Positions 27,393 to 60,687 of a stretch of DNA of 64,000 nucleotides are shown piece after piece. The stretch comes from Phoronis australis (lineage: Eukaryota > Animalia > Phoronida), in the NCBI GenBank assembly GCA_002633005.1, contig NMRA01000428.1:83335-147334 (forward strand), in the 5' to 3' direction. Below the pieces are notes generated by a model. That model saw nothing but the letters and a program-made list of their open reading frames with translations, did no database searches and was not told the DNA's origin. Each line of letters opens with the position of its first letter. Position 1 is the first letter of the stretch. A program made the position numbers and the translations under genes.

Positions 27393-28029
27393 GGTCAGTG
27401 CGCGTATGGAACGTGAAAGTACAAAAATCCTTTTTTGATACTCGGCCCTACTTTTGTCAAATCCGTATACCATATTTTGATGGAACTCAAGATCATGACT
27501 TATTGGCCACATAACTATTTTCTGGTGTTTTCGGTTCCATTGATTTTTATGGCGGGGAGGGATATTTTAACGATTTTTTATGCTAAGCCCTACACTAGAT
27601 CCATCTCGCTGTGGTCACGTACACACAAACCATGTGACTTCCTCAAAACGTCAACGTGGACACAAATTTCAGAGTTCCTTATTGCCAACCGACTTCTGCC
27701 CCCTAGTCGTCGTCCATTTAGTCTAGCTAGCCTCCCCTACCACCCAGCATAGGCGTACAGACTTTCTTCAGTGTTTGCGGCTTAACCAAATGAGGCAGCC
27801 TCCGGCAGAAATTTGCGTTTCCGCGAATACAAACAGATTTGCGTAGCTTTAAACGCGAAACCTGTGGCCCAGCCCTTTTTAACCCTAATTGGCAAAACAT
27901 CGAAATGGTTTTTATTTTGATAGGGTTCTCAATCTTTCTTCTTTCCTTCACTATAAAATGAACACGATTCATTTGTCTATAAATGTTTTTAAAGTTTATT
28001 TTGCAAGTAAGCATTTTAGCCAGTCTCCT

Positions 28030-28155
28030 GTTCAGTAACACTAGGACCTCGCTAAAAAGCAAGACTTTGTGAGATAACGTGAGATGTGGCCGTGTATTTT
28101 TAATGAGAGCACGTGACTTTGGCTAGCTTTTAGCTAGGTGCTAGCGTTACGGAAC
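28030..28155. mobile_element. ~126-bp MITE-like element with ~30-bp imperfect TIRs
   Basis: GTTCAGTAACACTAGGACCTCGCTAAAA ... TTTTAGCTAGGTGCTAGCGTTACGGAAC; homolog at 59340-59466. Confidence 0.7.
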
Positions 28156-28438: not shown

Positions 28439-28495
28439 ATGGCGTCTATCAAAAAATGGGGTAGTAAACTTCTCAGTAAGGCAGAATTGAGAAAG
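28439..28495 (+). CDS. Gene 2 putative first coding exon (MASIKKWGSKLLSKAELRK)
   Basis: ATG in Kozak context; aag|gtgaga donor in phase 0; joins the ANK N-cap exon; promoter-like motifs upstream. Confidence 0.6.
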
Positions 28496-31400
28496 GTGAG
28501 AGTTTAAATTTTAGAAATCATTTCGTCATCTGTTTGGGGACTCGTCCGTCACTTGTTTAGGCTGTTTATCCAAGTTTTGTTGTTGACCGCATCAGCGTTA
28601 TGGCGTCCACAACCAGCGTGACGTTATTATTAAATTCATGTTAAGTTGGACGTTTTGACATCAACGCACATGTCACTACTATTTTATACGTTTACAAAAA
28701 ACATTTAAACTAGACAGCCGTCAAAATGGCTTCACTCTAGAAATTTCCCAACGTCACAGCACCTNNNAGCTAGAGGGGTGAACACCACTATATCGAAAAT
28801 GGTGTAGATCCACCTTTGCAAGTTTGCAACGGATTCGTGCGTCCTTTCAGACATTGTTGAACATTATAACACTATACCAGTCTACTAGAGAATAAGAAAG
28901 TTTCAAGCATTATGCGCATGTCGCCGATATTGAACGGTTAGTAAGTTCCAGAGTCCACGCTCAATTCTGAGAAGACTGTCGTCAACGTTCCCAGTTAGAC
29001 CTGGTACATGTTGTAAACAAGACTATATATAGATGGGAGGGCATAAATGCAGATTTGCCAAAATTGAGCACTTTGTGACAAGTTTTTGTGGTCGATTTTT
29101 ATCAATTCCCTCTCCGCAATACAGTGATAGGCAAGTCCGTCTGTATTGTCCCTAAGGTCAACTTCCATAGGTTTGTCGCCGAACACCTTTTGTCAGCCAC
29201 TGCAAGTCAAGAAAAGCACTGTGAATGTAAGCACACTAACGATCGTCGGTGCATGGCAACTGTGAGCTGTACCAACGCGCGGTCCCGGAGCGATCATATC
29301 AAATGTTTTCTTTTTTCATGACTCATTGTGCGTAGGTTATCCAGGGGTTAGTGGGTTGAAAAGGCTCCAGGGTCATATTTTATGAAGTAGTAGCACAGGC
29401 GGCATGTCTGTGCTATTGCGTTGGAGCTGTTGAAGTTTTTTAATGTAAAGCCAATGCACGNCACAATCAGCGTGACGTTATTATTAAATTAATGTTTTTT
29501 GATGTCAAGTTGGACGTTTTGACATCAAGGCACATGTCACTACTATTTTATACGTTGACAAAAAGACATTTAAACTAGACAGCCGTCAAAATGGCGTCAC
29601 TCTAGAAATTCCCCAACGTCAAAGCACCTACGGGGGGAGGGGCGGGGGCGAAAATAGTGTAGATCCACCTTTTCAAGTTTGCAAAGGATTCGTGCGTCCT
29701 TTCAGACATTGAACATTATAACACTATACCAGTCTACCAGAGAATAAGAAAGTTTCAAGCATATATGCGCATGTCGCGGTATTGAACGGTTAGTAAGTTC
29801 AGTTCACGCTCACTTCTGAGAAGACTGTCGTCAACGTTCCCAACGTTTAACCTGGTTCATGTTGTAAACAAGACTATATATAGATGGGAGGGCATAAGTG
29901 CAGATTTGCCAAAATTGAGCACTTTTTGACAAGTTTTTGTGCTCGATTTTTATCAATTCCCTCTCCGCGAAACAGTGACAGGCAAGTCGGTCTGTATTGT
30001 CCCTAAGGTCAACTTCCATAGGTTTGTCGCCGAACACCTTTTGTCAGCCACTGCAAGCCAAGAAAAGCACTGTGAATGTAAGCGCACAAACGATCGATCG
30101 GTGCATGGCAACTGTGAGCTGTACCAACGCGCGGTCCCGGAGCGATCATATCAAATGTTTTCTTTTTTCATGACTCATTGTGCGTAGGTTATCCAGGGGT
30201 TAGTGGGTTGAAAAGGCTCCAGGGTCATATTTTATGAAGTAGTAGCACAGGCGGCATGTCTGTGCTATTGCGTTGGAGCTGTTGAAGTTTTTTAATGTAA
30301 AGCCAATGCACGTCACATTTTGACATCATCAAACACACGAAGCTGTTCTTCTACTATAAGCCTACCCGTGTACGTACATGCATAAGTCTATACATTCAGT
30401 GCCTATCGATCATGCACACATCAGTCTTTGAAGGTTAGTGTACAATAACGGTGCAGACGCTGTAACCGGACTTCACGGTGTGTCTTACCCTCTAGTGACC
30501 AATGAACTCACAGTTCCAATTCGACGACGACACCGAGCACTACATGTCATCAATGTCCACCCAACCTCAGCTCTCTGGTTCTTTTAAACGGGCATTAGAG
30601 GCCGTTCGTTTTTTCAACAGTGTTTGAGCTTCTAAATAAATTTAATTGTATTTCTGAACTCTGATTGTTTGCAAAATAGTGAAACGGCTTTGTTTGTCAA
30701 TACACGGTAAAAATTTAGTCATCCGTCTAGTGACGAAAACATATTAGTGTATAAGAGTCCTCTACTGGCTTGCATGTAGGCCTAGTAATCGATACTATCG
30801 TTATTTCTGAAACTCGTATGAATTCGACCAGACTGGTTCCTCGATTCTTTCACCCGTTTGTTCATCAGTCACAATTGAGAGAGGCCGGGTGATTTACTGA
30901 TAACGTATGATGGGATACCACTCGACTAAAGGGGATGGATTTACAGGGCAGCGGCTTCCATGGAAAGGTCTCATATTTCGGAGCCTAGCCTTTTGTAAGA
31001 ATTTACTTAGAATTGTGTTTTTATCCCTAAAACAGCTCAATTAATGAGTTATCATATTGCAACAATTTAACAATATAACGTTTCTATAAATGTTTGAAAT
31101 TGGATATAGGAGCCAATTTTTTCAGTTGTTTCGAGTTATCTTTTTCATAGAAAAGGCGGCGCTTATTTTAGTTTCTATGTTCTTCCACTTCAGAAACTGT
31201 CGAGTTGTTGAACTTTATCATTTTGTTGAAACGGATTTTAAAATAATTTCTGTTGAGTGTATTATTACATGTATCGATTCTAATTCTTAAATATTTTTTA
31301 TTTTGATGAATAATAACACCGAAAACAAAATTAATTCAGAAAAGTGAGACTATGCAGGAAACTTTATAAACATTGAAGTATTCCTCGGGGAAAATATTCT

Positions 31401-34400
31401 CGTGAACATACTATGTCTTTACTGGCCGAATATCTGCGTCACAGATTTTTACAGCGACGTAGATAAACTTATTTCCGAATTTAATTGAGAAAGGATAATT
31501 ATTTGAGGGACTGGAATTTGTCTCAAATCTATGGATTAGATTGCTTCAAATATATATATCAGAATAACCCGAGGGCCAGGGATATACAATTTTAAAGCTA
31601 ACGAATAAGATTGAACGACAACATTGACCTAATAGTTTGGAAAATAAAATGAACTTATTCCCGACTTACTTTTCTCCGGATCACTCTGACATGGACGTAG
31701 AAGTAATAAATTGATCGCAACAAACTGGTGGAAATGGAAAAATAGGTCCAGTACGAATTTAACTCTTTTGTAAGAATCACTGTCGTTATAAGAGTCCCTC
31801 TTTTTAACTTGAGTTTATTTATTCGTCACACTTCCTACCTCTACAGAGCAATCTGCATTTTGTTACAACATTATTTGGCTCGGGAATGACTGTGTTGATA
31901 CAGGATTATAGTAAAGTTGTGTGTAAAATTGTCTGCTTTGACTAACTTGTTAAACAAGCTCAGTCACTTTACACTTAACCTTCTAGTATTCCTAAGATTG
32001 TGAATGGTTTGCCTTTGTACCTGAAACTTGTTGTGATATTTCAGGCAGGAACACTATCACTCATGTCAACATTGTTCTGATGAGTAGATTTATTCTTTAT
32101 CTGATTGTGTTGGCCGGTGAGTGTAAACCACTGTTCTCCCTGGGACGTAGGACATTGAAGTCTTTTGACATACTTTACAGCGTAGCTTTCGCAAAAAAAC
32201 TGTTTACAAGTAACATTATTTTAATGGAGCATAACAATTACCAACCCACTGTCTCGTTCAGGAGTTCTTGTTTCGCTACGTCAGTGGAGTACAACATGGG
32301 TATCCGTTCACATAATTTATAATAGCGATTAGATGTCTTGAGGCATTCCCGATTTCCCACCGATTTAGTAAATTTTAAAGATATTGAAAGCAGGGAATAT
32401 AGGACAAGGAAGTCATTTTAAGTTAAAAATTAACTTTAATTTATGCCACAGAAGTCTTCGTACGGCCGCGGGGTGGGTTGCATGTCGTTGTGATTAATAA
32501 TCCAAAACGTTATTTCCTGTCAAGTGACATTTCGTATTAATTATTATACAGATATGGAGGCCAATTAAGGAATTTTATGCATTAGGAACTAGACTGTGTC
32601 AGTTTAAGCAATAAATGACCCCGTTATGAAATTGAAACGACATAACGTTTTCGAATAGAGTCATGTTATTAGTGGAATCACGTCTGTTGTACTTGTTAAG
32701 AAAAAAGTTGAAACCATAAAAAACTCAAGGGAATTCGGGAAAAGCCCTGTGATTTTCGTGGTATTGTTCGGGTGACTGGTAAAGCTCTGTTCTATTATGA
32801 GGGTGCAGACAAAGAAAGTATGAGCAAAATGACTGGAAGTTTCCATGGGCACAAAATAGTGTAGTGTTCCTAAAATTGCATCTATATTTGCCACTGTTAA
32901 GAAAAAGTTGAAAGAATGTTAAGAGCACTGGCAAATGTGGACCAGTGTTTGACCCTATAATGATTGTACATGTACACTGTGTGATGTATAATCCACATTT
33001 ATTTGTTATTATTTTCAGGTTCTCGAAGCCGTGAATGATAACGATTATGAAACTATACGACAATTTATGGACGCCGGTTGGGACATCAACCAACAATTGG
33101 ATAAAGTAAGTATGCACACCTGAACACTCCACAGATCCGAAGCGAAGTTCGGAAAGGTCGTTTCTCTGTAATCATGATTTTTTTGTTGAATAATGTAAAA
33201 TGTTAACCATTTCATTGTCATTGCAGGTAAGATTAGTCAATTTCGTATATTCGTTTCTTGTCAATTACAATCAAAAATTGTCAAATTCCAACACCTTCCT
33301 AGCTATTTGGATTTACACAATATGCCTTTTTATTTATTTCTTGAATTGCGGCGGCATTAAATAAAAATTGATCGTTCAGAGAAAGCAAGTCATAAATATT
33401 CCTCTCCCGCACCAGGAGCTACTGAAACAAACTTTTGTTGCTTTTTGATCAAAAAAACAAAATACGATTAAACACTAAACCGTACTTTTAAGACATAATC
33501 AACGAGTTCAAAAAAGGTTGGGGTTTTAAACGTCGGATTTTGGCTCAGAGTTCTATCGCAACACGAGGTTTTTTACCAAGACAAGATTTGCGAGAAACAT
33601 ATCTCCCTCCACCTACCTTGGCCAAATATATCATAATTGATGTAGGTGTGCGGTATACTAAGTAAGTAATGGAAAATGTTCGATATCAAAACTTGATTTT
33701 GACTTGATTCAAGAATTTAATGCCTCTTTAATGTGTCCCCCTTGACAGTCTCGGTCACACCTCCCGTTGACCCCTCCACCCCCTTTGACTTGCATAACGA
33801 TAGTGTTGAGGCTTGTAAAGAAAATACAACGTCAGTGCATCACCTTATTATGTATCAGTTGACGTTTGAGTGAATGTACTACAACAAAAATACTAAATAG
33901 AACGTTGTTTTTTTCAAGAGCCCAGACTAGAATCTACAGTGTTATTTCCTCTAAGCGTAGTTAGCGGCAAGTACTCTCCATTCAAGTTGATATTTTGTGG
34001 TTTCCGAGATTTCAGAGTTTTTGAAATCGCGGACTCAAAAATCAGGCCCGAGTCATTGTACTTTCACCTTATTTTGATATTACTCGTCGTGTTTTGTAGG
34101 TATATTAATTGTGTTACTCTTCATTTTTATTAACGATCAGTTCAAGTAGAAGTGGTCTAGTCGTGAAATTTTATATTGATACAACTTTGTAGAGAGGTTA
34201 ATGTTCAACAAGTTTGTATCTAGTGAAAGTGATCAGACCATTGCAAGGGGAATTATTTGTCTCCCTTATTTTTGACATCGCCTCTTTTGCACACCGTCTA
34301 AAATAGTTTGTTCGACAAGGTAAATTAATTTCATTTCACTAAATTAGGTAAATGCATTAGATACCCAATTACCTGAGCAACAGGTAAAAAGTGCAGGAGT

Positions 34401-37400
34401 GACTTATAGAAACAATGTAAAACAGATATGTACCCATTCAGCTATCCAAGTTATCGATATTGACGTACTTTTTGTAATTTACATTATTAGTATACACAGA
34501 TATGTTGGTAAGAAAAACACAATGAAACTTTGACGGTGTGATTTGATTAGCAGATCTATTGTACTTCTGTATAAAGTCATGCACACATGGAGGAAATTGG
34601 CAACTTCATTGATTGACACCATTCGGATAGTTATGAGCAGATTCAAAGCTTAGAAACATATATTGATCAGTCTCCCTTGGACAATTATGGTATTATTTTA
34701 CCTTTCATGTCTTCGACAGCGTCTAGGGTCCAAAACAACGACCAGGCAAACGACCCATGACACTGAAAACCGTGGCTGAATTATTCAGAGTTCAACAATA
34801 ATATTGATCAAAATTTGTCCAGAAAAATCCTTTTGTACGGTGTGTATGGCTGAATGTAAGTCGAGGAATAATATATTTTTTGCAAAAGATTGAGGAAAAT
34901 TTGGCTTTATTAATGATATTAATGCTATTTACCATTTGTGTTGGAAGGGTGTTCCATCTATCCAAAAAAATATTGTTGGTTTAAGAATGACTCGACAGTG
35001 AGACGGTTGAACTAAGACAGATGTAATCGAACGTCGACCTGATTTAGTGTTTTGAGCTCTGTCATTTTCAAAAGTTTTTTAATTGGATATATTATTTACT
35101 TTGGTTAGAGCTTTATGTGTTTAAACAGTTCAATGACATGGCATTAACGGTTTGGACCAGTTTAGATTTTTGATTGCATTCCAACTTTTTACGACATCAG
35201 TGGTGGTTATAACAGCCTGTTATTGCAGTCTGTCCAGCTGTACCAAACGTTCTGCACCATCTGTTTGGTAAATTATGTCAGCAAAGTCAAAATGAGGGAG
35301 TACAAAGTAATACAAAATGCGCTCAAAGATTTCAATTTACTAGATTTAATTTTAAATCAATAGGTTGATTAAAATTTGATTTTTGCCCACAGTGTGGTAA
35401 AAACGAAAGTTAATTGTGTATTATATTGACTGAATTTTTGTGTGAATGTTTTTGGAGAATAATTTCATCATTCAGGCTCATAGGAAAATGGGTCCCTGTG
35501 TAATTCGGGTATCTGTGACCGGTACGTAATACCCTTCAAACACCTTGAATGTCCATCGCAATGGCGCAACAGTCAATCGCCGTTTGAGCGCAAGAGGAAT
35601 GTACTAAAATAACTACTTTTAACTAATGTATGCACTCACTCAGTTTTTAGCACCTACTTAATCTCTTTCCATTCCTTTAGGTGACGTGATTTGAAGTAAC
35701 CGTCTCTAGCACGAATAATATTTTACTGCAAATTTCAGCAGCACATTTTTCAACCGCCTTCGCATGTAGGCAGTGCCATCTATTTTTACGCATACGAATT
35801 AAGGCCTGCGCAGTAGAACGCGCCATCTATTTTTACGCGTGAGAATTAGGGCCTGTGCAGTAGAACGCATTGCAAAATTCTAAAGTGTATCACTTAACAG
35901 AAACGACGTAACTTTGGTCTTGAAATGGGAACATTTTTATCATGGCCATGCCTCCGGTCTTAGCTAAGACGTTCTTAAGATTTTCACGGGCACTCGGTTG
36001 ATGAAAGTCGAGTGATCACTTGTAGTAAACATCCCACTACGTCACTGATTGGAAGGACAGTCTTGTCTGTGAATTGCTACCAATGACAGTTGCAAAGTAA
36101 GGGAGAGCGACGTAAACTTGAAGTTGTTACATTTTATGCTCTCGTCAATATTATGCGGTAAATGCTTTCAGTCATCCAGTTGAGTAAATAATATGTCCAA
36201 AATCGACCTCAATCCTTAAGTCCAGTAATTGATTTCATTTTGTACATATTACGTCACTGTTATGTTGCCAACTAAATATTCATTTCTCAAAGCGAACGCA
36301 ATGACGTTTGCTTGATCTTCATCAGGCGGAGTTATTATTTCAGTGTGAATGTAAAATGTCGAATTTCCAGACTTTTCTATGATTAGACGTACGCGCGACT
36401 TTTGTACGAGGGTAATAAAGGTTTGAAGATTTTGTCTAGATAGTTTTCAAACAAACACATGTTTTGCGGAACAATATGTTATTATTATTTTAGGCATCGA
36501 TGCTGTTATTCTATTATGAAATTGTTCATTATTTTAATACTACTCGTCGTATTTTGTACTTATCAAATATTTTTCTATTTTTTGACAAAGTAACCGTCAG
36601 GTCCGCTAGTCGTGACGGAAAATCAAATTGAAGCTAATACTCAAGATGTTCTAATTTTTGCTCCTTAGTTGCTTGCCATAAAAACTGGAGTAATCATACC
36701 GTTACATAAGTACGGTGACTGTAAAAGGACGGCACGGAACCTTTTTTCTCCGTTGCTAGCTCTGTCGACAGGCTTTACTTACTCTAGCGATATATTTATT
36801 AATTCTATTGATAGACTTACTAACTCTATCGATAGACTTACTAACTCTATCGATAGACTTACAAACTCTATCGATAGGCTTAGTTTCTCTGTCTATAGAC
36901 TTACTAATCTCTATTGCTCGATAGCTAACAACTCTATCGATATAGATATTAAGTCTACACATGTAAATAGAGTTGCTTTGCAGTCCTTTTACAGCCACCG
37001 TATTAACCAGTATCTTCCGATAAGGAAATGTTTCTTTAAAATATTCAAGGACAGGCAAGTGTATCAATTTATCGCGTGTACACGTGGAAACTTGCCGGCA
37101 AAGCGCTCTTTTTAAAAGCAACGCTTCGTCTTAGTCTAGACGCATTTCCTGCAAATAGCCCTGTATAAGGTTCTAGAAGCATTTTTTAGTAAAAGTTGGG
37201 AACAAGACTTTTTCACACAATCAAGGTATGGCGAATTCAACTAACCCTGTTCCCAAGCCGAATTTTGCATTTTTGACCATCTAATTTGCATAAACAAAAT
37301 GGCGGCCAAATAGTCAAGTTCAGTTGTATTTTTGTAATAGAAATCACCATATACCATTTAAAATGGTGAAATGTCTCACCTGTATACTTCTTATAAATAC

Positions 37401-40400
37401 TTCTTGAGCAATAAATCACTTATGAATACTAAAAAATGCAACTCTGAAAACTAATTATGCAAATTAGGTGCCGCTTTTACCATACAATGTAATTTGCGTC
37501 TTAAGTTTGTGTTCCTGCAGGCTAACTTGAAAAATGAGTTGTTTATACTTATATTTTCATGGTCAACAAACATGCTAAAGACATTTTTGGAGCAATTTAT
37601 TTCATATTTATTGGGTTATAGATGTATACTTACAGAATGTGGAAAAAATAGTCTTTAAGCTGCAATGCTCGTCAAGCAAGGTGTCACTATTTTGATGGAA
37701 AATAGGACAAATGTTCACACTATCCCGTTATCTTCCATTCTTAAAAAANNNNNNNNNNNNNNNNNNNNNNNNNNNNNNNNNNNNNNNNNNNNNNNNNNNN
37801 NNNNCAAAAAAGGTTGGGGTTTTAAACGTCGGATTTTGGCTCAGAGTTATATCGCAACACGAGGTTTTTTACCAAGACAAGATTTGCGAGAAACATATCT
37901 CCCTCCACCTACCTTGGCCAAATATATCATAATTGATGTAGGTGTGCGGTATACTAAGTAAGTAATGGAAAATGTTCGATATCAAAACTTGATTTTGACT
38001 TTATTCAAGGATTTAATGCCTCTTTAATGTGTCCCCCTTGAAAGTCTCGGTCACACCTCCCGTTGACCCCTCCACCCCCTTTGACTTGCATAACGATAGT
38101 GTTGAGGCTTGTAAAGAAAATCCGGCGTCAGTGCATCACCTTATTATGTATGAGTTGACGTTTGAGTGAATGTACTACTACAAAAATACTAAATAGAACG
38201 TTGTTTTTTTCAAGAGCCCAGACTAGACTCTACAGTGTTATTTCCCCTAAGCGTAGTTAGCGGCAAGTACTCGAAGTTTGGTATAACTCTCCATTCAAGT
38301 TGATATTTTGTGGTTTCCGAGATTTCAGAGTTTTTGAAATCGTGGACTCAAAAATAAGGCCCGAGTCATTGTACTTTCACCTTATTTTGATATTATCCGT
38401 CGTGTTTTGTAGATATATTAATTGTGTTACTCCTAATTTTTATTAACGATCAGCTCAAGTAGAAGTGGTCTAGTCGTGAAATTTTATATCGATACAACTT
38501 TGTAGAGAGGTTAATGTTCAACAAGTTTGTATCTAGTAAAAGTGATCAGACCATTGCAAGGGGAATTATTTGTCTCCCCTTATTTTTGACATCGCCTCTT
38601 TTGCACACCGTCTAAAATAGTTTGTTCGACAAGGTAAATTAATTTCATTTCACTAAATTAGGTAAATGCATTAGATACCCACTTACCTGAGCAACAGGTA
38701 AAATGTGCAGGAGTGACTTATAGAAACAATGTAAAACAGTAATAATGATATGTACCCATTCAGCTATCCAAGTTATCGACATTGACGTACTTTTTTTGTA
38801 ATTTACATTATTAGTATACACAGATATGTTGATAAGAAAAACACAACCAAACTTTGACGGAGTGATTTGATTAGCAGATCTATTGTACTTCTGTATAAAG
38901 CCATGCTCACATGGAGGAAATTGGCAACTTCATTGATTGACACCATTCGGATAGTTATGAGCAGATTCAAAGGTTAGAAACATATATTTATCAATCTCCC
39001 ATGGACAATTATGGTATTATTTTGCCTTTCGTGTCTTCGACAGCCTCTAGGGTCCACAACAACGACCAAGCAAACGACCCATGACACTGAAAACCGTGGC
39101 TGAATTATTCAGCGTTCAACAATAATATTGATCAAAATTTGTCCAAAAAATCCTTTTGTACGGTGTGTATAACTGAATGTAAGTCGAGGAATAATACATT
39201 TTTGCAAAATATTGAGGAAAATTTGGCTTTATTAATGATACAAAACTGCTATTTACCATTTGTGTTGGAAGGGTGTTCCATCTACTCAAAAAATTATTGT
39301 GGATTTAAGAATGACTTGACTGTGAGACGGTTGAACTAAGACAAATGTCTTCGAACGTCGACCAGATTTAGTGTTTTGAGCTCTGTCATTTTCAAAAGTT
39401 TTTTAATTGAATACATTATTTACTTTAGTTAGAGCTTTATGTGTTTACACAGTTCAACGACATGGCATTAACAGTTTGGACCAGTTTAGATTTCCAACTT
39501 TGTACGGCATCAGTGATGGTTATAACAGCCTGTTATTGCAGTCTGTCCAGTTGTACCAAACGTTCTGCACCTTCTGTTTGGTAAATTATGTCAGCAAAGT
39601 CAAAATGAGGGAGTACAAAGTAATACAAAATGCGCTAAAAAAGTTCAGTTTACTAGATTTAATTTCAATCAATAAGTTGGTTAAAATTTGATTTTTGCCC
39701 ACATTGTGGTAAAAACGAAAGTTAATCGTATATTATAGTGACTAAATTTTTGTGTGAATGTTTTTGGAGAATAATTTCATCATTCAGGCTCATAGGAAAA
39801 TGGGCCCCTGTGTAATTTGGGTATCTGGAATGAAATAGATAAAGGTTTTCGAGCTGATGTCTGAATGAAAGGCACTGATGTAGAGCAGAAACAACACTGG
39901 CCAATATTACACTAGCTTGCCTATTTCTACGTCGACAAACCCGTGAAAACACACCGTCTAGTAGTACTACCCGTTTGGAACGATATGATGTTAAGAGTGT
40001 GTGCAGAGTGAACGATATTCCATAAGAAAAAAGTTTGTACAAGAGGAGTTCATGGTGGTCATGTGGAACCATGTCAAACGCGCATGTCACATCTAGAAAT
40101 TAAATGTAAACAAAAAATCCATTTTCAAATTGTTCGTAAAGTTTTGTTGAATAAATGAGTAGTTGTAGGAGATATATCTTTTATATTTACAGATGTAGTT
40201 TAATTATTTCATTTGTTATATGGTCGGTACTGTCATTTTAGACTGTGTTTTTTAACAAAGTCTGATTTGTGCAAAGGAGTCTTGGAAATTTGTCAGTTGA
40301 TGTGGACTGTTCGTATTCATATGGCATATGCTATATTTTTGAAGTTATCCAAGAACAGAGCACAGAGGCTGCGCTTTGTGATTCCTAGCTGGTGTTTTAA

Positions 40401-49400: not shown

Positions 49401-52400
49401 GGACTCCATACTCATCTGGGCGATGACAATGTATTCCGCGAATAAATTTGCTGGTTTGGCAACTGCCAGTGAAATACGAAATAATCCTCACACCAAATGT
49501 GTTGATCAGGATCAGTCGAAATGGTTTTTTCGAATATTTGACTATTTAAGTATTCCGTTGAAATGTCAATTCCTATTCACAACTTCAATGGATGATGATT
49601 TCCAAGAACTACCAATTGTAGATTTTCGTCTTAAAATTTGGATGCAACCGTTGTCAATAAAATGAAACTTATGCAATGAACGTTTTGGTCAAAGCACACC
49701 TCTAGTCGTGCCTTTCCATCGGAATAGGAATAGAAAACAAAAAAGCCAAACGCATAAACAAAAATATTCATATCTTCAAAAAGGACGATTCAATGTCATG
49801 GTTCTCAACATTAATCCATGTTACATAAAAATCGAATCGTAAGGATTTTGGCACGTTTGGTGTAATTCAATGATGTGGTGAATAGTACAGTTTTGGGGTT
49901 TCAAAGTGTGAGATTTTGAATTATTGAAAATAACATTTTCCAGCATATTTGCAGTGAATTTATTCTACAAAGGATGTGGACGTTCTAAATCATTTTCGGT
50001 AAACAATAAAACATGCACACTGACAATCACGTTTGGGAGATGTCTTGTTATAAATCATTTTTACTTGCGTTACATTTTATAATCTCTAATGTATGATCTT
50101 AATAGACGGACAACCCTTTTGGTATTTGTCACTTCCTTTATACTGTTTTTAATTTAGCTAGTTTTCTTTCCTACAGCAACGTGGTTTAGGGGGAACGTGT
50201 ACTGGGGGGGGGGCTACTTAGTTTTAATTTCAAGGTGATTATGTAGTGGTCAAGATGTTCACAAGATGACAAAGGACTGAACAAATTACTTGGAATTTCA
50301 ATTACTTCTCTCGAAGTGTTGTAACCCGGTGGCTTATTTTTAATCCGACTGCACGACTGTGTATGTTCTTGTCGTGCTTTGATTTATATATTCTGCGAGG
50401 GTCTAATCTCGTGCGTAAATTATTTTTCGCTGTTGGCAAGGGAAATTCCACTGAAAATTATAGTCGTCCTATTCATTCAGCAGTAAACACCATTGAGCCT
50501 GTTCATTCTTCTTTATGCACAGTAAGTCTCGTCGTAATAATGCCACGAGAGTGTGCAGGGAAATTGTCATTCTGCGTCCAAAGTATGCACACGAATTTGA
50601 GTTTTATTTTTCATGTCAAACTTGCAATGAATGGTAGCGTGAAGGACAATTCCCACAAATTGCGTCACTTCGGACTGCTTTACCTCAAAGATGGTAGATC
50701 AGGTTTCGGTGGAGCAGCATCACAAACGTTATGAATATTGATAAATTTGGACAATTTTCTAGGGTCTCTCAGAATCCATTGTGTTTTTTGTGATTTTGTT
50801 ACAAGTCCCAAAGTCTCTCAGTGGTGTCCAGAGATTCGCTGAAGTCAGAGACAGTGGCTTTTTTCAGTAAAAGCGAAATTGGGATTATAGCTGTTCGCTT
50901 TCATCATAGCTGTATAACAACAAAAGGCTGTTCTGTGATTTTATTACAAATCTCGAATTCTCGTTGTTTTCTGGCAGACATTCGCTGAAATTGTGACACT
51001 CTTAAAATACTAACTAAATTTAGCTAGTGGGACTTAGCTCAATGGCAGAGCGTTGAACTGCGACTGACGAGCAATTGCTTTCGATTTCTTGCTGCGACTA
51101 TCGTCAAAAAATACCTTACTCCCCGGTAATGTCTCTTTTAATATTCTTAACGTAGTCCACCATTCACGGAGAATATTTTTTTCCGACAACATTGTTGGAC
51201 TGCAACCGCGGGGTTTGAAGGTTGATTCCACTCTGAGGCTCAAATCAGATATTTTTGCACGAAACAGCGATTTAAAGAAAATGTGACTTGCAACCCAACA
51301 TTATTGCAAAATATTGCCACATTATGTTTCTCGTTAATTCTGCTCGATGTGCAACATGACTGAGTCAACTACTCAACCACCAGGTGGCAGTGTTGGCATG
51401 TTTATAAAGACTTTGTTGGCAAACTATGCTATCTGTAAGATTTACAACAATAAAAGAAATCGGAAAGCTAAAGGTTTTTTGTGAAGTACATAATATAAGT
51501 TTATTGATTAATGTTACTCAGCAAGTTTTATTTACACTCTAGTGTGAAAAACTAAAGACAAAGGCCGCAGTGCATTTTTCAATGTAACTGCTCTTTAAGA
51601 CTCATGCGTGCAATACAAAGCTGTAGGAAACCGTGAGTTCAACTCTCCTTGACAGAGTGTTCACTACATGTATCCTCTACACGCAGATGAGTTGAGTCTA
51701 CTGAAAACATTGTTAACCATAACGGATAGAGCTGTTGAGCGTGTGTTGGCTCCAGTTGATGATATCACACTATGGGATCCATACGCTTACAATTCATCGA
51801 AATGTGTGACATGAACAAAAAGTTGTTCACACCCTGGTCTCTCCAATAAACTGACTTAAGTCTCAGATTTGTCTCAACTCCCAAACTTGCAGAAACGGCG
51901 AAAGGTATGCACTTTGCTTGTATCCATGAATATGGAGGTCACGTGTTTTGTGTAGTGCAGGTTTGACTTAAAATTAATACCCATTTTAATTTTAATTTTT
52001 AATCTGAATTAAAACACGTATTTTACAGGATGGAAAAACTGCTTACGATGTCTGTGGGAAAGAAGCAATAAAGAACCTCCTTAAGGTACAAAGTAATGAA
52101 CCAGTTTATGAGTGTTGTTATACGCAGACGATATCATCGTTGTTAATAACTTGGTTGTTTTTGTTATTGATATCACGACCACATTGTCAATATTAGTCCT
52201 CATTACTACTAGTACTGCTATTATCAGACCACCCAAAGAAACATGTCTCACGTGCAGAGGTAAGAATAAGCGTTTTAGGAAACCATACCACATCTAAAAC
52301 AATATCCACAGGGTCCAGGAGTTTCGTTTCGTAACTTAAACAATGCTCGTTGTTCTAGTTGGCGGGGTAGTAGGGCAGATAGTCTTGCCATATTCAAATT

Positions 52401-55400
52401 GATTGTAATCAGAGCAATCAATAGATCATGATGATCGGTAGAGGTTTCCGAATTGTGCTTGAATGTCACTTACATGCATTTGTATTTCAAGAGACGAAAA
52501 AACAATATCGTTTCCGTTTCATGACGGTCAATTGCGTTTGCATCTCTAGTACTTCCTGTTGAAATGACGCGCCCTAACGTTTGTAACATCTAACACAATT
52601 TCACGACGTCATTGCAACAGTCCAACAGGTACAGTAATCGAGAATGTTGACCTAATTTCCAATCTACACTTATGGAGCACCGAAAGATTCTTAAACGAGC
52701 ATGTTTATGCGCGTTGAATTAAGCTTAATCAACGCGTCAACGTTTGGTTTTGCTTAATCAACGCGTACATTTATTTCGTAAACCACCATTGTTCTGCCGT
52801 TTTTCAACGCGCATTTTAGCTTAACCAACGCTTAGTTTTCTTATATCAACGCACATTTTGATTATTCAACGATACTTCTAGTCAATTCATATAGTCCAAT
52901 CAAACCCCAACTCACAAAATCTCAAATTGACGGACGTAAGACTTTCTGCACGGCGCAAAGCAACTTTTGAAGAATGTACGTTGCAGACTTCTACCAAATG
53001 ACCACGTAAATGTTAGGAACAGGTATATTTCAATATAAACTTGTCTTTGATTGCATGTGACGAACTACTAATTCACTCGCTGGTTCCCTGCGTGTCCCCT
53101 AGGGGGAAGAGGACACGTAGGTATAATTCAGCTGCACGTGATTTATCACTGGTTGATGTACTTGCCACCTCGGCAGTCTTTGTTTAGCTTTACAACATTG
53201 AAGAAAGATAACGATAACGGCGAATTGTGACCGATTTTTAGCTTTGCGTACATCTTCATGAACCAGGTTTTCTCTATACAGTGTCAATAACGTCTTGAAC
53301 AAATCTCCATTAAGCACCGATTTATCTACAGCAGACTATATCCACATTTATATTTCCTCCATCATGCCGGTTTGTTTGCGCATGAAGCGCTTACTGCTGA
53401 CAATTAGACCAGCTAATCAGAATCGCCGGTGTAAAAAATTTCCCGGGGAATATTAAATGATACCTGTGGCGCTCATCCCCTAGGGGACACGCAGTAAACA
53501 GTGAGAATCAACCCAGTCCCTTAACTTTCGAGGTGAAAGTTATCTGAGGGCGCTGTTAACGCTCAAACCTACTTGCACCACTAGGCATATGTGTCCTTGA
53601 AACCCCTTCCCCTTTCGATAATCAAAGTTGACGAGGTTTCATCTGAAACCCTTACTTCAGTCCTGAGGTAATGATTGGGAATGCTCGTTGTTTGAAACTT
53701 TTGAAATGTAGTGGTTACAATCCATGAGAAATATCCAATTACTTACATTTAACAATGTCACTTGCAGAAACACATGAAACAGACTCCACGATCCAAAAAA
53801 ATGAACCGAAGTGTCGAGTGTGCTGAAGAAATGCGACCCCGTGTGCCTGAAGGAGCGACTGCGGGTTCACCCGATCAACGTCTGGGAGCGAGTGCTACCC
53901 CGTCTGAGAAGCAGTTTAGTTCAATGCTCGAACGTTATGCCTACTCAAAAGGCAAAACCATCCCCGACAGCGAGGCGGAAGTCAGCTTTACAGTAAAAAG
54001 GAGAAACGACAGTGACTTGGACATATTGAAGTTGGTTATCAGGCAGTCAGGTAATTGTAAAGTTCAAGGAAGGAGTCAAATTTCATAAACGAATTCCTGT
54101 TCCTATTCCAGTTTCCACGTAAGAGTTTCTACATGAACCAACTCTATATTTTCCAGATTACTTCCCACTCATACAGTCTCCTACACAATTAACTGGTTCA
54201 ACGACACAATTCCATGCTCCTGGTAAGAACGTGATGTCGGCGGAGTTACACAAGTCTCTTGCTGTTGAGCTCCAATCAGTTGTGTTATTGGCAAAAGCAG
54301 ACGGCACAGGAGTGGGATCTGGGTTCCGTGTTGGTCCAACTTACGTCATGACAAACTGTCACGTATTAAAAGGACTTAGTCATGAACGTAAGTACGAACT
54401 TGCAAGTGTTTGAACTGAGGCATTTTGTTTATAAATAAGCATGTATAGCGATCTGGTGGTTTGAAACTTTTAGGGCTGAGGCTTGAATTATGTTGTTACT
54501 TCTCTGGCTAGTGAGAGACCAGTGTAGTCAGCATCAAGACACTCGGTGACTGTTGCCGTACATAAAAGCTGGGTTATTTTAAAGTACCATCATTCCAGGT
54601 TTGTAATCTAAAATATTTTTGCACAAGAATCACCGAATAAAATTTTGTGGCCTAATGCATCACAGTTGTATAAAAGGCTACGTACACTACAACTTGTGGT
54701 CACAGCCTACTTCTACCATGCAAAAATTCATAAGGTAGCTGTTAATAAGTTCTTGATCAAATTGAAGAAGTATAACAAACTAAAGTAAGAAAATTCATTA
54801 CCGTGCTGATCAAGTTGTTCTAGATGATGATACATTGCATATGTTAACACAGTATGATGAGAATTTCTTGCAATGTGATTCTTACAAAAAGAAAATGACA
54901 AGTAACTACTTTTTTCAAAAACTTTATTGGTGCTATTTGCTTAGTTTTCAATACATTCATCAGTTGGTCAAAATAGCTAAAGCAATGCTAGGACCAGTGT
55001 TCCACTTGTAAACAGTAAAAAATGGTACTGGTTGGGGGGTACGTACACTACGCACAGTAAATCAACGTCAAATTTTAACTAATTTACAAATGTATGGGGT
55101 GGTCTTGAGTTTTGTGCTGCCGCTACTTGTTGGTTTGTTGCAAGTTGTCTTGAGAGATAGAGAACCTGCCTCTGCAACATCAGTTGTCACGTGACATGTC
55201 TTCTAGGATTTTAAGTACAAGTTCTGATCCCCAGCCATTTTGTTTTGAAGTCCAGCCGACTGGTTTTCAAGTCCGCCTAGTCCAACCAATTGTTCAAGGC
55301 CAAAAAGTTTTTACATGTTAAAGTGGAGTCATTTATTGTGTTAAATACTCCATGAGTGGGTTGATACACGGTATCACATCACATTCTAATCCAACGAAAA

Positions 55401-55903
55401 GGTTTTGTTATGTAAGGACACAGTATATTTACGCTTAGAACTAAGCTATAGTACAGAAAATTGCGGCCTTATATTGAGTATGCGTTTTTTGATCGACACA
55501 GTCGTGTGGTCGCAGCGTTCCTCGGCTCTCCTGGTATTCTGAAATGTACTTTTTGCGGTCCAATCCTACTGCCTCGAACACAGCACAGTTTTCACCGTTA
55601 TTTTCCGGTGCTGTCATCAACAGGAGCTAAAGCAACACACTGTATTTTCTATATTCCTGGATGGATTCTTTTTAAGTTCCCGAAGAACTTTTATTATTAA
55701 TGAATTGTTCATCGTGAGATATTCACAAACTGAAATTTCAATATGAAATGAAACTTTACAAGTTATTAAACATAACGGATTATCTTATCACTTTTCTGGC
55801 GCCTGTATGCTTGATATAGATATGACGTCACACGACAACAAGCCAATGCACATAACAATAAGGTACATGTATAGCCGCGAAGCAAATATGTTCATATATA
55901 TAG

Positions 55904-55992
<89 letters not shown>

Positions 55993-55997
55993 TGAAG

Positions 55998-56034
<37 letters not shown>

Positions 56035-59000
56035 TTGTGTGTATTTATCCTATATACATTAGAATACTACTATAATACCTTCTCTTCTTGAATTCATTTC
56101 ATCCGGGACATCCCCAGATGACATTATTATACCCATGTATGTGGGGTAATCTATATAGCACGTCAAGTGGAGTCATTTAGTGCATTCTATGATGCATTAA
56201 TACATTAATAAGCTGATACACTTTATTATTGACAGCCATCAGAGACTAAGAGACGAGAAAACATGTTTCAATTTGTATGTTCAGCTTCCGTTGTCAGGCA
56301 TTATAACCACGCCCAGTGCAAGTGAAACTGTGTTGCACTACACAATATCAGCTTCTGTCAATTATTATCAGGAAACAAACTGTTGATCATTTCCAATTAT
56401 GTACTTTACAGCCAAGGATAACGTGGCAGTGTTCAATTTTGACAAGCCTCGTCGCATGGACGGTGTCGGAGCAGCGCCTATCCGCGCCATATTGGCTCAT
56501 TGCGAGGACCTCGATGTGGCCGTCCTAGACCTTGATTTCGACGCAGTACTTCCAATAGCCTTTAACGAGTGTCAAAGGATCAACAAGTTCTCGCTTCCAT
56601 CGCCTGTTACTGATTTTGCCACTATCGATGCGCAGGAATATATTCATTTTGTTGGACATCCAACTGGTGACGGGAAAGTTTTGGATACTCAGTGTACAAT
56701 TGACCGTACTTGTACATCGCCACACAATAGAGAAAAGGTGCTATAATATTCTCAATGCAGGCCCGTAGCCAGGATTATACGAGGGGGGGCTCCGAATTTC
56801 TAAAAGGTTGGACCTTTTGACGGCATTTCGCTAGAAGTAGCGTCGACCCTCTCTACTTTTCTGGTTAGCGCCCTTCAGAAGCTGACGCATAATAAGCGAC
56901 GCAATAAGTTTTCAAAGCTTTAATGTCAAGAACATTAATAGTTGAACAAAAACTTAATACACTTGATTCAATGTACATGTAAGTTCCACAGAAGATACAC
57001 ATCAGGTTAGTACGCTATCAAATTTCATCTTCCTGGGATTTATTTGCTCAAAACGCTGGACAACTCTGTCAATTTCTATCACTTTGTTGTAATTAACGTG
57101 CATCAGCGCTAGGGATGACATTCTGTCACCACTCATACTTGCTCGCATGAACGTGTTGAGTCTGCGTAATGTGCTAGCTGATCTCTCGCGTTCACACGAC
57201 GTCACCGGTAGTGTAGCCAAAATTTTTAGCCTTACACAGACGTTCGGATACAAAATTTGGCCACAGTCTTGTATAGTCTGGGAACATGTCGACAGCGCAT
57301 TCTGCTGGGATTTCCAATTGTGCCTCCATTGCATCATTTCCTGTTGAAGTAACTCGGGTCATCGAAGACTTCATCCACAGTCTCGTGAAGTTCCTGGTAC
57401 AGGGTTTGAATCTCATTCACCATTCCGTAAGCTTGTACAATATCAACTGTTGTACTCTGCAATTTGATTGTAATGCCTTCTAGATGAGAAAGTAAGTTAT
57501 ATACTATGCAGAATGTCACTATAAAATCAAAGGAAGTGATACCAGCTAGCAACCCACTTGCTTCGGATTTGTACTTCCCTGTCCAGCCTGAGGTCACGTC
57601 GGTGCTGTACTCGTGCTTGTGTTGGTCATATGCTATAACTTCTAGCGAAATTACAATACACCCGTACGACTGAAAAAAACCTCGAATAAGCATCGTGACG
57701 AGCCGCCCAGCGAGTGCGGCAAACATCAATGAGGGGCTTTTTAGCGATTCGGGGTCTTTCTTTTTATGCATTTCATTCAGGAGGTGTTCTGACTTTGGAC
57801 GGCTCATAAAAAAGTAAACAACGCATTCTAATTTATTCAAAGTATTTCTGATTTCCTGTATCGAACATGAACAGGCTATCACTAAGTTTAGACAATGACT
57901 GCAGCAATGTGTGTATAAGGCTAAAGGGGAGTGTTCACGCAGGATTGCCATGACGCCAACGTTGTCACTACTCATATTTGCTGCGCCATCATATCCCTGG
58001 CCTCTGCAGTTGGCAATGTCGATCCCGAGCCTATCTAAGGTGCCCATTATGCATTCCGCTACGTGTTTGCCGGTTATCCGCGCAAGACTACAGATTACCA
58101 GCAACTCCTCTCGAATGTTGTCATCGGCGTCTACAAATCGTATACACAAGGGCATGAGTTCTTCATTGTTGGACGTAACCTCATCAGCCATAACGGAACA
58201 AAACTTGGCATCTTTTATTTCCTTTACAATATCGGCTTGTATGAGGTGTTTTCCAATAATCTCGATAATTTCATTCTGTATTTGAGGCGAAGTGCACATG
58301 GCGTTCTTCATTTTTGGGTGCTGTAAGTGTTTCTTTAGAGTTTCATCACAGGTACTCGACAGTTTCAAAAGAGCAAGAAAACTTCCCGGGTTACCGTTAT
58401 CTTCTGTCAAACTTTCAGAATCTCCTCTAAGTGCAATACACTGGCGACCGCAATAAGGAATCGCTTTAGTTATTGCCAGGAGATTGTGCCTGTTTTCCTT
58501 TATTTGGTCTTTGACTTTACTGTCTAAGACAGCGTCAACACCTTTCTGCGGATTTTCCATCATGCTAACAAATGTATTAGCATCATTTAATGCCTCCATG
58601 TCATATCTTTTTTTGAAATGCTCAGACAGTATTTTCGTTTTATGATGCCATTGCGTGAATTGCCTGTTCACTAACTTGGTTGGTTGCCTTTTTACGTCAC
58701 CTTTCGAAAATAAAGCACAAGAAACGCAGAACGCACCATCAATTTTTGAGCTATACACCAATGAATTCCCAAACTCTTTAAACCAAGCGTGTCTGAATGA
58801 GCGGTTACACCCCGCTGCATACTCTGTTGGAAAAATGTAGTCAGGAGATGGTTTGTCGTGATTTTTGATAAGATTGTATTTTTGCACGTCACTTAATTTG
58901 CTTAAGGCGTAGGAAACCTCTTCTATCGAATCTGTTGCTCGGACGCATGGAACTCTGCGAGGTGGTGTACCATTGCCACTGATTTGCTGTCAACACCACG

Positions 59001-60687
59001 CTTTTCTTCATTGACTGAAGATTGGTTAGTGGACCTAGGCGTACATGTATATATTCCTGCCTGTGAACAGGCACCTGTGTCCATATCTGAGTTTTCTGTC
59101 AAAAACACGGTAATTAAACGTCTGTTTTTAGGAGCAGGGGCTATACGTAAGCTGAATTTAAAGAATGGAAACGCGTTCAATTATGCGCATCATTATGCAT
59201 GTCAATCAAACGATCCACAAGTACAGTGTACATTGTAAGTCGCAACAGAATCCGCGATAGCTTTCGATATGGAATTTCGAAAAGCGTGCTATACATTGTC
59301 ACTAGCAACAACCGAATGCATGCGACAAACCTGGCTCCCGTTCAGTAACACTAGGTCCTCGCTAAAAAACAAAATTGCGCGAGATTACGTGAGATATTGC
59401 TGTGTATTTTAAATACAAACACGTGACTTATGTTAGATTTTAGCTAGGTCCTAGCGTCTACTGAACGCACACCTGTTTTCTGCTTCTTCGCCCATTGGTT
59501 GATTTTAAGACACCCACTCGCTGCTTTTTTGAGAGCTCTCTCTCTCTCTCGATGCTGTTTACCACCAGGCATGTTCGCTAATTTAGAATGACCCTCGTAC
59601 CTCATGGTGTAGTCATCACGAGAGCACGTGCGTTTGTGGTTAGTCGGTGTCTTTGAAACTGTCAATGTCTTGAAGCGTCCTGTGGTCGTCTGTAGGCCTA
59701 AGATGCCGTTACCTACAAGAACTATCAGGCGAAGTTCTTGCGGTCTGATGTCGCTATGCAAAGCGGTTTGAATCAGATGAGCAGTGAAGATTCGAAATCA
59801 TCACTAGTTTTTTGATCATTTTAATTAATAGTGGCTGTAGTAATTTCTGTTGGTGTCCTGCTACATCCTTATCGTAGCCCGAGCTGGAGGTTTTCGGCGG
59901 GGAGGGGGTTCGATCGAACCCCCCGAACCCCCCCTGGCTATGGGCCTGCAATGTCACTCAGAATGAGTTTGATATGAACTAGAATGTACCTTTGTTCAGT
60001 TTTAAATACAACCAATTAAGCGAGTTCTACAGTTCAATGTAGGATGAAAGATGTTTTACATACCTAGAAGTTATATCAGTAGGATTACTAGACATTTGCC
60101 AGCTGGCCTTAAACATATGATTTGTTTTATTGAGTGAAGAGAAAAGATGGCATTTAGGCGAATGGCTGAAATTCTTCCAGTTTCTTTAGAAACAAGGTTG
60201 AGATTTTTATGCCCTTCAACATATTCTTAAAATTAAACCGTACTTCATAGGTAGAGTGTTGTTTTATTTCAATAGTCAGCAGTCATACATGTAGTTTGCT
60301 TACATCAGTGACCAACACGTTATGTGTTCTTAACCTGTTTACGAAATCACGTTGTTATACTTACAGCTCCTTGGGCTACACAGGAAATATAACAATGACG
60401 TGTTCAAGAAAATAGCAGACAGACGGCGAGCACTTTACCAATCCAGCGAAAAATTCGGCAACGGCAGCTCAGGAAGTCCAGGCTTTGTAGCTGACCATCA
60501 AAAACGGGCGTGCGTGGCCGTCATGCACTCGTGCGGACATTTCATAAGGGTGGCGCCTGGGGAATTTCATCTCGATGCTATTGAGCAGGGAGTGAGGATG
60601 GAGTGTGTCTACGAGTTCTTGTTACATAATTATGCTGAGTTGTGTACGGACATTTTCCGTGGAAGAAAGCCAGCTCGTGTAGTGTGA
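28439..60687 (+). CDS. Gene 2: ankyrin-repeat + FAM111-like trypsin-fold serine protease, ~619 aa; join(28439..28495,33019..33105,43922..44020,44584..44682,45056..45154,45535..45633,46155..46256,52029..52085,53768..54050,54157..54387,56412..56737,60367..60687)
   Basis: 12 exons give a 1860-nt in-frame CDS from ATG (good Kozak, gatATGG) to TGA. It has an ANK N-cap, five TPLH repeats and a C-cap, then protease motifs GSGFRVG, TNCHV (His), LDVAVL (Asp), GHP and GSSGSP (Ser). The ANK-protease linkage is inferred from phase and continuity, with no transcript evidence. Confidence 0.8.
28608..30312. repeat. ~850-bp tandem duplication joined at a single N (29461)
   Basis: 28608-29460 vs 29462-30312. 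Confidence 0.9.
33019..33105 (+). CDS. Gene 2 ankyrin N-cap exon (VLEAVNDNDYETIRQFMDAGWDINQQLDK)
   Basis: ttttcag / gtaagt, phase 0-0; G-x-D-I-N ankyrin tail. Confidence 0.8.
33509..42904. repeat. Large tandem duplication across the gap (33509-37131 vs 37805-42904)
   Basis: Colinear, few-percent divergence; the second copy has ~1.5 kb extra (39827-41304); gap at 37749-37804. Confidence 0.9.
39722..40160 (-). mobile_element. Degenerate CR1/L2-type LINE reverse-transcriptase fragment
   Basis: AFDMVPH..LLLYKLFSYGI..LLTSY..RVVLLDGVFS resembles AFDxVxH..LLxKL..YGI. Confidence 0.65.
43173..43385 (-). mobile_element. Degenerate LINE ORF2 C-terminal fragment
   Basis: RGHQLK...HFFP resembles the CR1/L2 TRGH...FF tail; weak. 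Confidence 0.35.
43922..44020 (+). CDS. Gene 2 ankyrin exon (DRETPLHQAACRGSTEVARVLLQCGAHVDMPDK)
   Basis: 99-nt phase 0-0 exon, ctgcag / gtaata, ANK consensus. Confidence 0.9.
44299..44395 (+). pseudogene. Decayed ankyrin pseudo-exon
   Basis: After taaacag: EATKPVYQ, +1 frameshift, then TTWRGHCQVMEAL; no intact in-frame donor. Confidence 0.5.
44584..44682 (+). CDS. Gene 2 ankyrin exon (EGWTPLHCAALYGYTQTVKCLVEHSATVNVTSK)
   Basis: 99-nt phase 0-0 exon, catag / gtaatt. Confidence 0.9.
45056..45154 (+). CDS. Gene 2 ankyrin exon (EGVTPLHCAAGCGYTQTVECLVEHSATVNVRDE)
   Basis: 99-nt phase 0-0 exon, catag / gtaatt. Confidence 0.9.
45535..45633 (+). CDS. Gene 2 ankyrin exon (DGRTPLHRAAQWGHTAVVQCLLQHGANVNVRNK)
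   Basis: 99-nt phase 0-0 exon, catag / gtaatt. Confidence 0.92.
46155..46256 (+). CDS. Gene 2 ankyrin exon (WGDTPLHTASEGGHAAVVKLLIIKGSCDVTAVKR)
   Basis: ctgtag acceptor; the donor gttgta is weak and there is an alternative in-frame donor gtaaag after 46247. Confidence 0.8.
52029..52085 (+). CDS. Gene 2 ankyrin C-cap exon (DGKTAYDVCGKEAIKNLLK)
   Basis: ttttacag / gtacaa, phase 0-0; typical terminal GKTAxD repeat. Confidence 0.8.
53088..53494. mobile_element. ~400-bp MITE-like element
   Basis: Perfect 18-bp inverted repeat CTGCGTGTCCCCTAGGGG. Confidence 0.6.
53768..54050 (+). CDS. Gene 2 linker exon (KHMKQTPRSKK...LVIRQS)
   Basis: ttgcag / gtaatt, phase 0-1. Confidence 0.8.
54157..54387 (+). 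CDS. Gene 2 protease exon with catalytic His (GSGFRVGPTYVMTNCHV)
   Basis: ttccag / gtaagt, phase 1-1. Confidence 0.9.
55905..56033. repeat. (TG)n and (TCTG)n microsatellites
   Basis: Seen directly. Confidence 0.98.
56412..56737 (+). CDS. Gene 2 protease exon with catalytic Asp (DLDVAVLDL; FVGHPTGDGKVLD)
   Basis: ttacag / gtgcta, phase 1-0. Confidence 0.9.
57002..58887 (-). pseudogene. hAT transposase (ZMYM1/PRKRIR-like: TTF-type zinc finger, DUF4371, hAT dimerisation domain), frameshifted and internally deleted
   Basis: Motifs FCVSCALF, ALRG, SPQIQNE, MADE, GQGYDGAANMS, HCCSHCLNL, LPVTSCERERSAS, LALMHVN; TRW motif out of frame; C-terminus in a different frame. Confidence 0.9.
59340..59466. 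mobile_element. Second copy of the ~126-bp MITE-like element, nested in the hAT transposon
   Basis: Aligns end to end with 28030-28155. Confidence 0.7.
60367..60687 (+). CDS. Gene 2 terminal protease exon with catalytic Ser (GNGSSGSPGF...VAVMHSCG)
   Basis: ttacag acceptor in phase 0; TGA stop at 60685-60687. Confidence 0.9.
   Translation, partial: LLGLHRKYNNDVFKKIADRRRALYQSSEKFGNGSSGSPGFVADHQKRACVAVMHSCGHFIRVAPGEFHLDAIEQGVRMECVYEFLLHNYAELCTDIFRGRKPARVV

Follow-up and report, generated by a model that had tools for sequence, protein, structure and literature searches.

The 64,000-nucleotide (nt) stretch of Phoronis australis DNA analysed here, which we call the window, comprises positions 83,335 to 147,334 of the forward strand of contig NMRA01000428.1 (assembly GCA_002633005.1). 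It is spliceosomal, animal-type DNA with a GC content of 38.2% and a CpG observed/expected ratio of 0.72. Between window positions 28439 and 60687 on the + strand lies a chain of 12 exons with GT/AG ends and a single open frame, in which an array of ankyrin repeats leads into a trypsin-like protease. We found that this ankyrin-protease fusion is real and transcribed. All 12 exons joined give 619 amino acids (aa); in this chain exon 7 is taken as 46155-46256. The exons, all on the + strand, are listed below.

28439-28495, +: exon 1, ATG and predicted start of the N-cap; strong donor
33019-33105, +: exon 2, predicted N-cap-like degenerate ankyrin repeat; AG/GT ends, phase 0; no Pfam Ank match
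43922-44020, +: exon 3, ankyrin repeat 1, 33 codons; Pfam Ank E-value 6e-09
44584-44682, +: exon 4, ankyrin repeat 2, in a tandem unit that includes introns (units of 472-479 nt); Pfam Ank 1.3e-09
45056-45154, +: exon 5, ankyrin repeat 3, a near copy of exon 4; Pfam Ank 8.5e-09
45535-45633, +: exon 6, ankyrin repeat 4, spliced straight to exon 8 (reads 45633>52029); Pfam Ank 1.6e-13
46155-46290, +: exon 7, ankyrin repeat 5, probably used as an alternative last exon; Pfam Ank 2.9e-08; donor score -7.9; TGA 46272-46274; AATAAA 46285-46290
52029-52085, +: exon 8, C-cap with GKTAYD motif; reads at both joins
53768-54050, +: exon 9, 94-codon linker; reads at both joins; no Pfam, NCBIfam or PADLOC match
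54157-54387, +: exon 10, N-terminal part of the protease with GSGF and TNCHV, catalytic His 54360-54362; Trypsin_2 E-value 0.0024, below cut-off; expressed
56412-56737, +: exon 11, middle of the protease, predicted catalytic Asp 56513-56515, GHP motif; supported by frame and ESM Atlas; joins predicted
60367-60687, +: exon 12, C-terminal part of the protease, GSSGSP, catalytic Ser 60469-60471, His 60526, Glu 60583, stop TGA; supported by frame and ESM Atlas; join predicted

An earlier sequence-only reading of the window had described eight phase-0 exons, and the first eight exons (28439 to 52085) do all lie in phase 0 with GT/AG ends. Five of them (exons 3 to 7) match Pfam Ank above the curated cut-off, one repeat each, with E-values from 1.6e-13 to 2.9e-08; a profile built from these five repeat exons found no sixth ankyrin repeat exon in the window. 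A single frame, free of stops, runs through the linker exon (283 nt) and the three protease exons. When the 11 donors of the model were scored with a simple weight matrix, the poor ones were those at 46256 (-7.9, the lowest of the 11) and 56737 (-0.2).

The evidence for the fusion comes from three raw stranded RNA-seq runs (three samples of one study, chosen by species label), used together with a contig set, X1, that contains 0.08 of the words. About 18-19% of each raw run was aligned to 45400-55850 at 88% likeness. Three joins are present in all three raw-read runs, each with GT..AG ends and a minus-strand first mate, an arrangement that in most stranded libraries indicates RNA of the + strand. 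The join of exon 6 to exon 8 (45633>52029) is crossed by 2, 3 and 18 reads in the three runs (23 in total), that of exon 8 to exon 9 (52085>53768) by 6, 4 and 12 (22 in total), and that of exon 9 to exon 10 (54050>54157) by 19, 13 and 22 (54 in total). At each of the two joins of exon 8, the best reads cover all 57 of its bases. The latter two joins, along with the open frame, confirm the in-frame passage through a linker exon into the protease that had been proposed from the letters. Read support covers the joins within 45535-54157; those further upstream, as well as 54387>56412 and 56737>60367, are predicted. No exon join was seen in the contigs of run X1, which is no evidence of absence.

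The route through the repeats differs from the one first proposed, which joined exon 7 to the C-cap (46256>52029). That join does not appear in the 15 of 18 joints listed, its donor is the weakest, and the reads go 45633>52029 instead, so the fused messenger RNA carries four TPLH repeats, not five. A variant of the 45633>52029 join contributes further reads (9, 4 and 3 in the three runs), as does a diverged C-cap that is likewise spliced to the linker (4, 1 and 0), so the same fusion exists in more than one allele or paralogue. We rejected, as the main arrangement, two separate genes with a protease that starts independently at ATG 53774: reads splice exon 8 onto exon 9, and no site at which many molecules begin is listed for the aligned RNA reads, there or elsewhere. 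ATG 53774 is thus no main start, though it may serve as a minor one.

Exon 7 has a read depth at 46232 of 3, 2 and 19 in the three runs. It is entered by 1+0+6 reads from a repeat exon that only partly matches exon 6, and 12 reads (1+0+11) extend from 46252 as far as 46310 across unknown letters. From this coverage, the run-on reads, the TGA at 46272-46274 and the AATAAA at 46285, we infer that exon 7 is likely an alternative last exon, yielding an ankyrin-only protein of 219 aa in this haplotype. The sequence-only reading had named the same TGA as a stop that would speak against a fusion if the ankyrin exons ended there; the stop exists, but it leaves the fusion standing and likely ends the alternative isoform.

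With exon 7 skipped, the remaining 11 exons predict a chain of 585 aa with no internal stop, consisting of the cap, four TPLH repeats and the C-cap to residue 199, a 121-aa linker and then the protease, whose triad would be His362, Asp405 (assigned from its motif) and Ser514. The motifs GSGF..TNCHV, GHP.G and GSSGSP each occur once, in order and on the + strand, and were found together in none of 200 shuffles, for patterns picked post hoc. They lie in frame, in agreement with the intact His/Asp/Ser motifs described earlier. Hydropathy reveals no signal peptide or membrane segment (maximum 0.42 in the first 40 aa, with exon 1 predicted, and 1.27 over any 19 aa), as had also been claimed for the signal peptide.

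The classification of the protease was approached exon by exon. Exon 10 alone matches Trypsin_2 with an E-value of 0.0024 (19.1 bits against a cut-off of 27.6) and the MarP/HtrA profiles weakly, far below their cut-offs. The ESM Atlas neighbours of exon 11 include trypsin families (best 0.91), and those of exon 12 include trypsin-fold fragments (best 0.92, in a search under the recognition threshold). Sequence searches of the PDB with three single exons gave weak MarP/MucD matches for exon 10 only. Single-exon AlphaFold models, with predicted local distance difference test (pLDDT) values of 39 and 42, were too poor to use, and a Foldseek search with one of them was uninformative. Word-seeded protein searches, made among longer proteins, found no relatives of exons 11, 10 and 12 among 126, 73 and 37 candidates, respectively, which is weak evidence. 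We rejected the 139 HMMER matches to exon 11 as chance, since six of the seven checked were leucine-rich-repeat proteins matching over a short stretch. No relative appeared in two metagenome scans and one viral scan, and PADLOC returned nothing meaningful.

The family that the protease most calls to mind is FAM111. FAM111A is an intracellular protease that is active as a dimer, is autoinhibited by its N-terminal region and restricts poxviruses through degradation of a viral protein (PMC10920703, PMC11949059, PMC13245274); dimerisation-dependent, chymotrypsin-like activity with autocleavage is a defining trait (PMC10920703). Its triad is His385, Asp439 and Ser541, and His556 and Glu573 line the S1 pocket (PMC10920703). 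The His-Asp spacing is 43 here and 54 in FAM111A, the Asp-Ser spacing 109 and 102; after the Ser, a His follows at +19 here and +15 in FAM111A, and a Glu at +38 and +32. This spacing is loosely compatible with the FAM111A landmarks and is not an alignment. Judged on motif spacing, we consider kinship with FAM111 probable. We do not class the gene as a FAM111 member. FAM111-like proteins that lack UBL domains are reported from a soft coral and a lancelet (UniProt A0A7D9LSX1, A0A6P4ZC58; PMC9798293); the word ankyrin has no occurrence in the excerpted text of that FAM111 review.

An independent line of support for a sensor comes from the repeats themselves, where change is concentrated at the predicted binding face. 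Exons 4, 5 and 6 sit in tandem units that include intron sequence, and with one repeat per phase-0 exon such units would permit repeats to be gained, lost and exchanged. Exons 4 and 5, the most alike pair, agree at 89% in DNA and 79% (26/33) in protein, the remaining repeats being more divergent. Over their 99 bases they show 11 differences, every one of them non-synonymous (chance of no synonymous change, 0.047). Within the six predicted binding-face codons (1, 3, 11, 12, 31 and 33), 8 of 18 bases differ, compared with 3 of 81 in the framework (Fisher p 3e-05) and 8 of 240, or about 3%, in the flanking introns (Fisher p 1e-06); a permutation test gives p 0.0007. The codon numbering agrees with the ankyrin consensus at G2, T4, P5 and H7 (PMC9611651). 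DARPin (designed ankyrin repeat protein) libraries are randomised at six positions (PMC9611651), called the paratope (PMC8683736). About five more repeat variants in the loose ends of reads share, by eye, the same framework with different hairpin residues. This pattern of replacement changes suggests a diversifying sensor. In fungal immune receptors of the NLR type, near-identical repeats with a few hypervariable positions set specificity (PMC13449251), and brown-algal candidate receptors encoded by ROCO genes show shuffling of one-repeat exons and alternative splicing (PMC11378527).

One further element bears on the last splice of the gene.

56758-59948, -: hAT-type DNA transposon inside the last intron, 20 nt past the weak donor; 16-nt terminal inverted repeats, 15/16 complementary; DUF4371 E-value 7e-19

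The transposase of this element (about 57005-58989) is frameshifted. A 5-nt duplication flanks the element; the usual hAT target duplication is 8 nt. A separate 128-nt element occurs in two copies, 81% alike, at 59330-59457 within the transposon and at 28020-28147, about 300 nt upstream of the ATG. Intron 1 holds an 850-nt tandem duplication (28696-29465 and 29499-30317) beside small runs of N, possibly an assembly duplication. In intron 2, two blocks (2.0 and 1.6 kb, 94-96% alike) recur on each side of an N gap at about 37750-37804, within 33509-37131 and 37805-42904; they are possibly a haplotype duplication in the assembly. No exon copies were found within these blocks, and the gap could conceal a further repeat exon. 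On the - strand at 39725-40099 lies a decayed reading frame that resembles a fragment of a reverse transcriptase of a long interspersed nuclear element. Loose ends of contigs at 52029-52058 come from other ankyrin genes that have the same start of the C-cap exon and then unrelated sequence, and a loose end at 54309 comes from a paralogous protease exon; C-cap and protease modules seem to be reused across genes. Upstream, at about 14700-22320 on the + strand, is a gene with Ig/cadherin-like exons (Big_9 E-value 4.7e-07) and, by eye, EGF-like and membrane-like segments; its Cys-rich exon at about 18600-19120 has no Pfam match and carries roughly twelve N-x-S/T sequons.

What would such a gene do? 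We give about an even chance to the reading that this expressed fusion gene is an intracellular immune sensor-protease. The proposed mechanism draws on FAM111A biology, the hypervariable-repeat fungal NLRs and brown-algal exon shuffling. The ligand would be a foreign protein, bound by the rapidly changing face of the ankyrins; by analogy with FAM111A, whose N-terminal autoinhibition and activation by dimerisation may have their counterparts here, ligand binding would free or dimerise the likely FAM111-type protease, which would then cut the bound target or host proteins. The ankyrin-only form might compete for ligand and so act as a decoy or damper. The sequence-only reading had likewise arrived at a ligand-activated protease receptor; its fusion of ankyrins to a signal-less protease is upheld by the reads, and its exon chain is amended, exon 46155-46256 being skipped in the fused form.

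Several points weigh against this putative immune sensor-protease. The reads come from other individuals and were aligned at 88% likeness with paralogues included; many exon 6 reads derive from related ankyrin genes. The join to the exon that carries the Ser is predicted, through a weak donor (-0.2) with the transposon 20 nt off. The selection signal concerns one exon pair, spotted before the test was set up, and comparison of exon 6 with exon 4 or 5 gives only p 0.053; moreover, the six binding-face positions are ones that we take from DARPin design. As for the FAM111 part, word-seeded protein, HMMER, metagenome and viral searches with single exons as queries yielded no relative, FAM111A was absent from the three single-exon PDB searches at E-values up to 10, and the His-side motif resembles HtrA/MarP too.

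The fusion may also be real and have nothing to do with immunity. The ankyrin array would then be a fixed module for targeting or recruiting substrates, comparable to UBL/PIP in FAM111A or PDZ in HtrA, and the protease would have a housekeeping or developmental task. In its favour, ankyrin repeats serve generally as binding modules, expression is seen in all three raw-read runs with no challenge on record, and FAM111A has a replication role as well. A fixed module fits poorly with exons 4 and 5, in which all 11 differences are replacements and eight fall in the six binding-face codons, and with the several further repeat variants in the reads, whose framework is, by eye, unchanged; we regard this explanation as rather unlikely.

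Two other explanations concern the locus itself. Lying next to the weak donor (56737), the transposon might block the last splice, so that translation would stop at TAA 56744-56746 without the catalytic Ser and the window would hold a truncated allele, decaying or non-catalytic. The donor score of -0.2, the transposon starting at 56758 and the join 56737>60367, itself predicted, allow for this. Exon 12, however, is an intact frame of 106 codons with a strong acceptor, the needed phase and all expected motifs, and the in-frame TAA precedes the insertion point, so the donor at 56737 was needed before the transposon arrived; we hold truncation to be improbable. Still more improbable, in our judgement, is that the junction reads stem from a paralogous fused gene and that the locus in the window is mosaic or mis-assembled, its halves separate or silent. 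The reads were aligned at 88% likeness and mostly match at 90-95%, paralogues are evident from variant joins and loose ends, and duplicated blocks lie beside the gap in intron 2. Yet the joins fall exactly at the GT..AG sites of the window, the best reads cover exon 8 across its 57 bases, the frame is intact and the vicinity of ATG 53774 has no listed mass start; even if this explanation were true, the species would still possess the fused architecture.

Beyond the single gene, we suggest tentatively, as something possible that we would not yet expect, that it represents a hitherto undescribed family of animal immune receptors that consist of one chain and lack an NTPase switch. In these, hypervariable exon-encoded ankyrins, reshuffled in the manner of a natural DARPin library, would direct a FAM111-type protease against foreign proteins, the spliced ankyrin-only decoy would be a brake, and the pathogen-directed use of FAM111 would be ancestral. 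Among the matches listed in the full-text literature searched, a body without supplements and with subscription journals mostly outside it, no ankyrin-trypsin protease fusion appeared; none is found in the excerpts of PMC11788884 and PMC8195603, nor in those of a poxvirus review that matched the architecture search. An unstudied automatic annotation of an ankyrin and trypsin layout may exist somewhere. The role of FAM111 before its UBL domains and PIP box is left open in PMC9798293 (sections 10 and 13), with antiviral defence suggested as first. That pre-UBL function could be put directly to the test in a FAM111-like protease controlled by an ankyrin array under diversification. It would also add a protease-output class to the repeat-based immune receptors of animals and be a natural example of a re-targetable intracellular protease.

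Among known systems, RNase L has an N-terminal ankyrin sensor that controls a C-terminal enzyme by dimerisation, and it binds one fixed second messenger. Here, by contrast, no pseudokinase or RNase Pfam match is present, a protease takes their place, and the ankyrin face varies. HtrA, DegP and MarP (MEROPS S1C and relatives) resemble our gene in the GSGF and TNxHV motifs and in the fusion of a regulatory binding module to a protease, but the module here is N-terminal ankyrin, with no signal or membrane anchor; there is no PDZ domain after the protease, the HtrA/Deg trait, as the frame ends 71 codons past the Ser with no PDZ match.

The fungal NLRs with ANK, WD40 or TPR repeats of high internal conservation (HNWD family; PMC13449251) may resemble our gene in their near-identical repeats with few hypervariable positions, and do so in the fused enzymatic effector. 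The gene described here differs in that its effector is C-terminal, its repeats lie on separate exons and it has no NACHT or NB-ARC NTPase switch, for which the 121-aa linker leaves no room and shows no match. High internal conservation there means repeats at least 80% alike; exons 4 and 5, one pair, reach 89% in DNA and 79% in protein, with the changes on the binding face. Brown-algal LRR-ROCO candidates (PMC11378527) share the layout of one repeat per exon; their exons are shuffled, their selection is diversifying and their repeat exons are alternatively spliced. They combine leucine-rich repeats (LRR) with a ROC-COR GTPase, in place of ankyrin and protease. FAM111A and FAM111B (MEROPS S1; PDB 8S9K, 8S9L) have in common with our gene a C-terminal Trypsin_2-type domain with His/Asp/Ser, similar triad spacing, the His and Glu landmarks after the Ser and the lack of an export signal. 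Where vertebrate FAM111 has two UBL domains and that of placental mammals a PIP box, neither of which is present here, the N-terminal half of the Phoronis protein consists of an ankyrin array and a 121-aa linker without a Pfam match.

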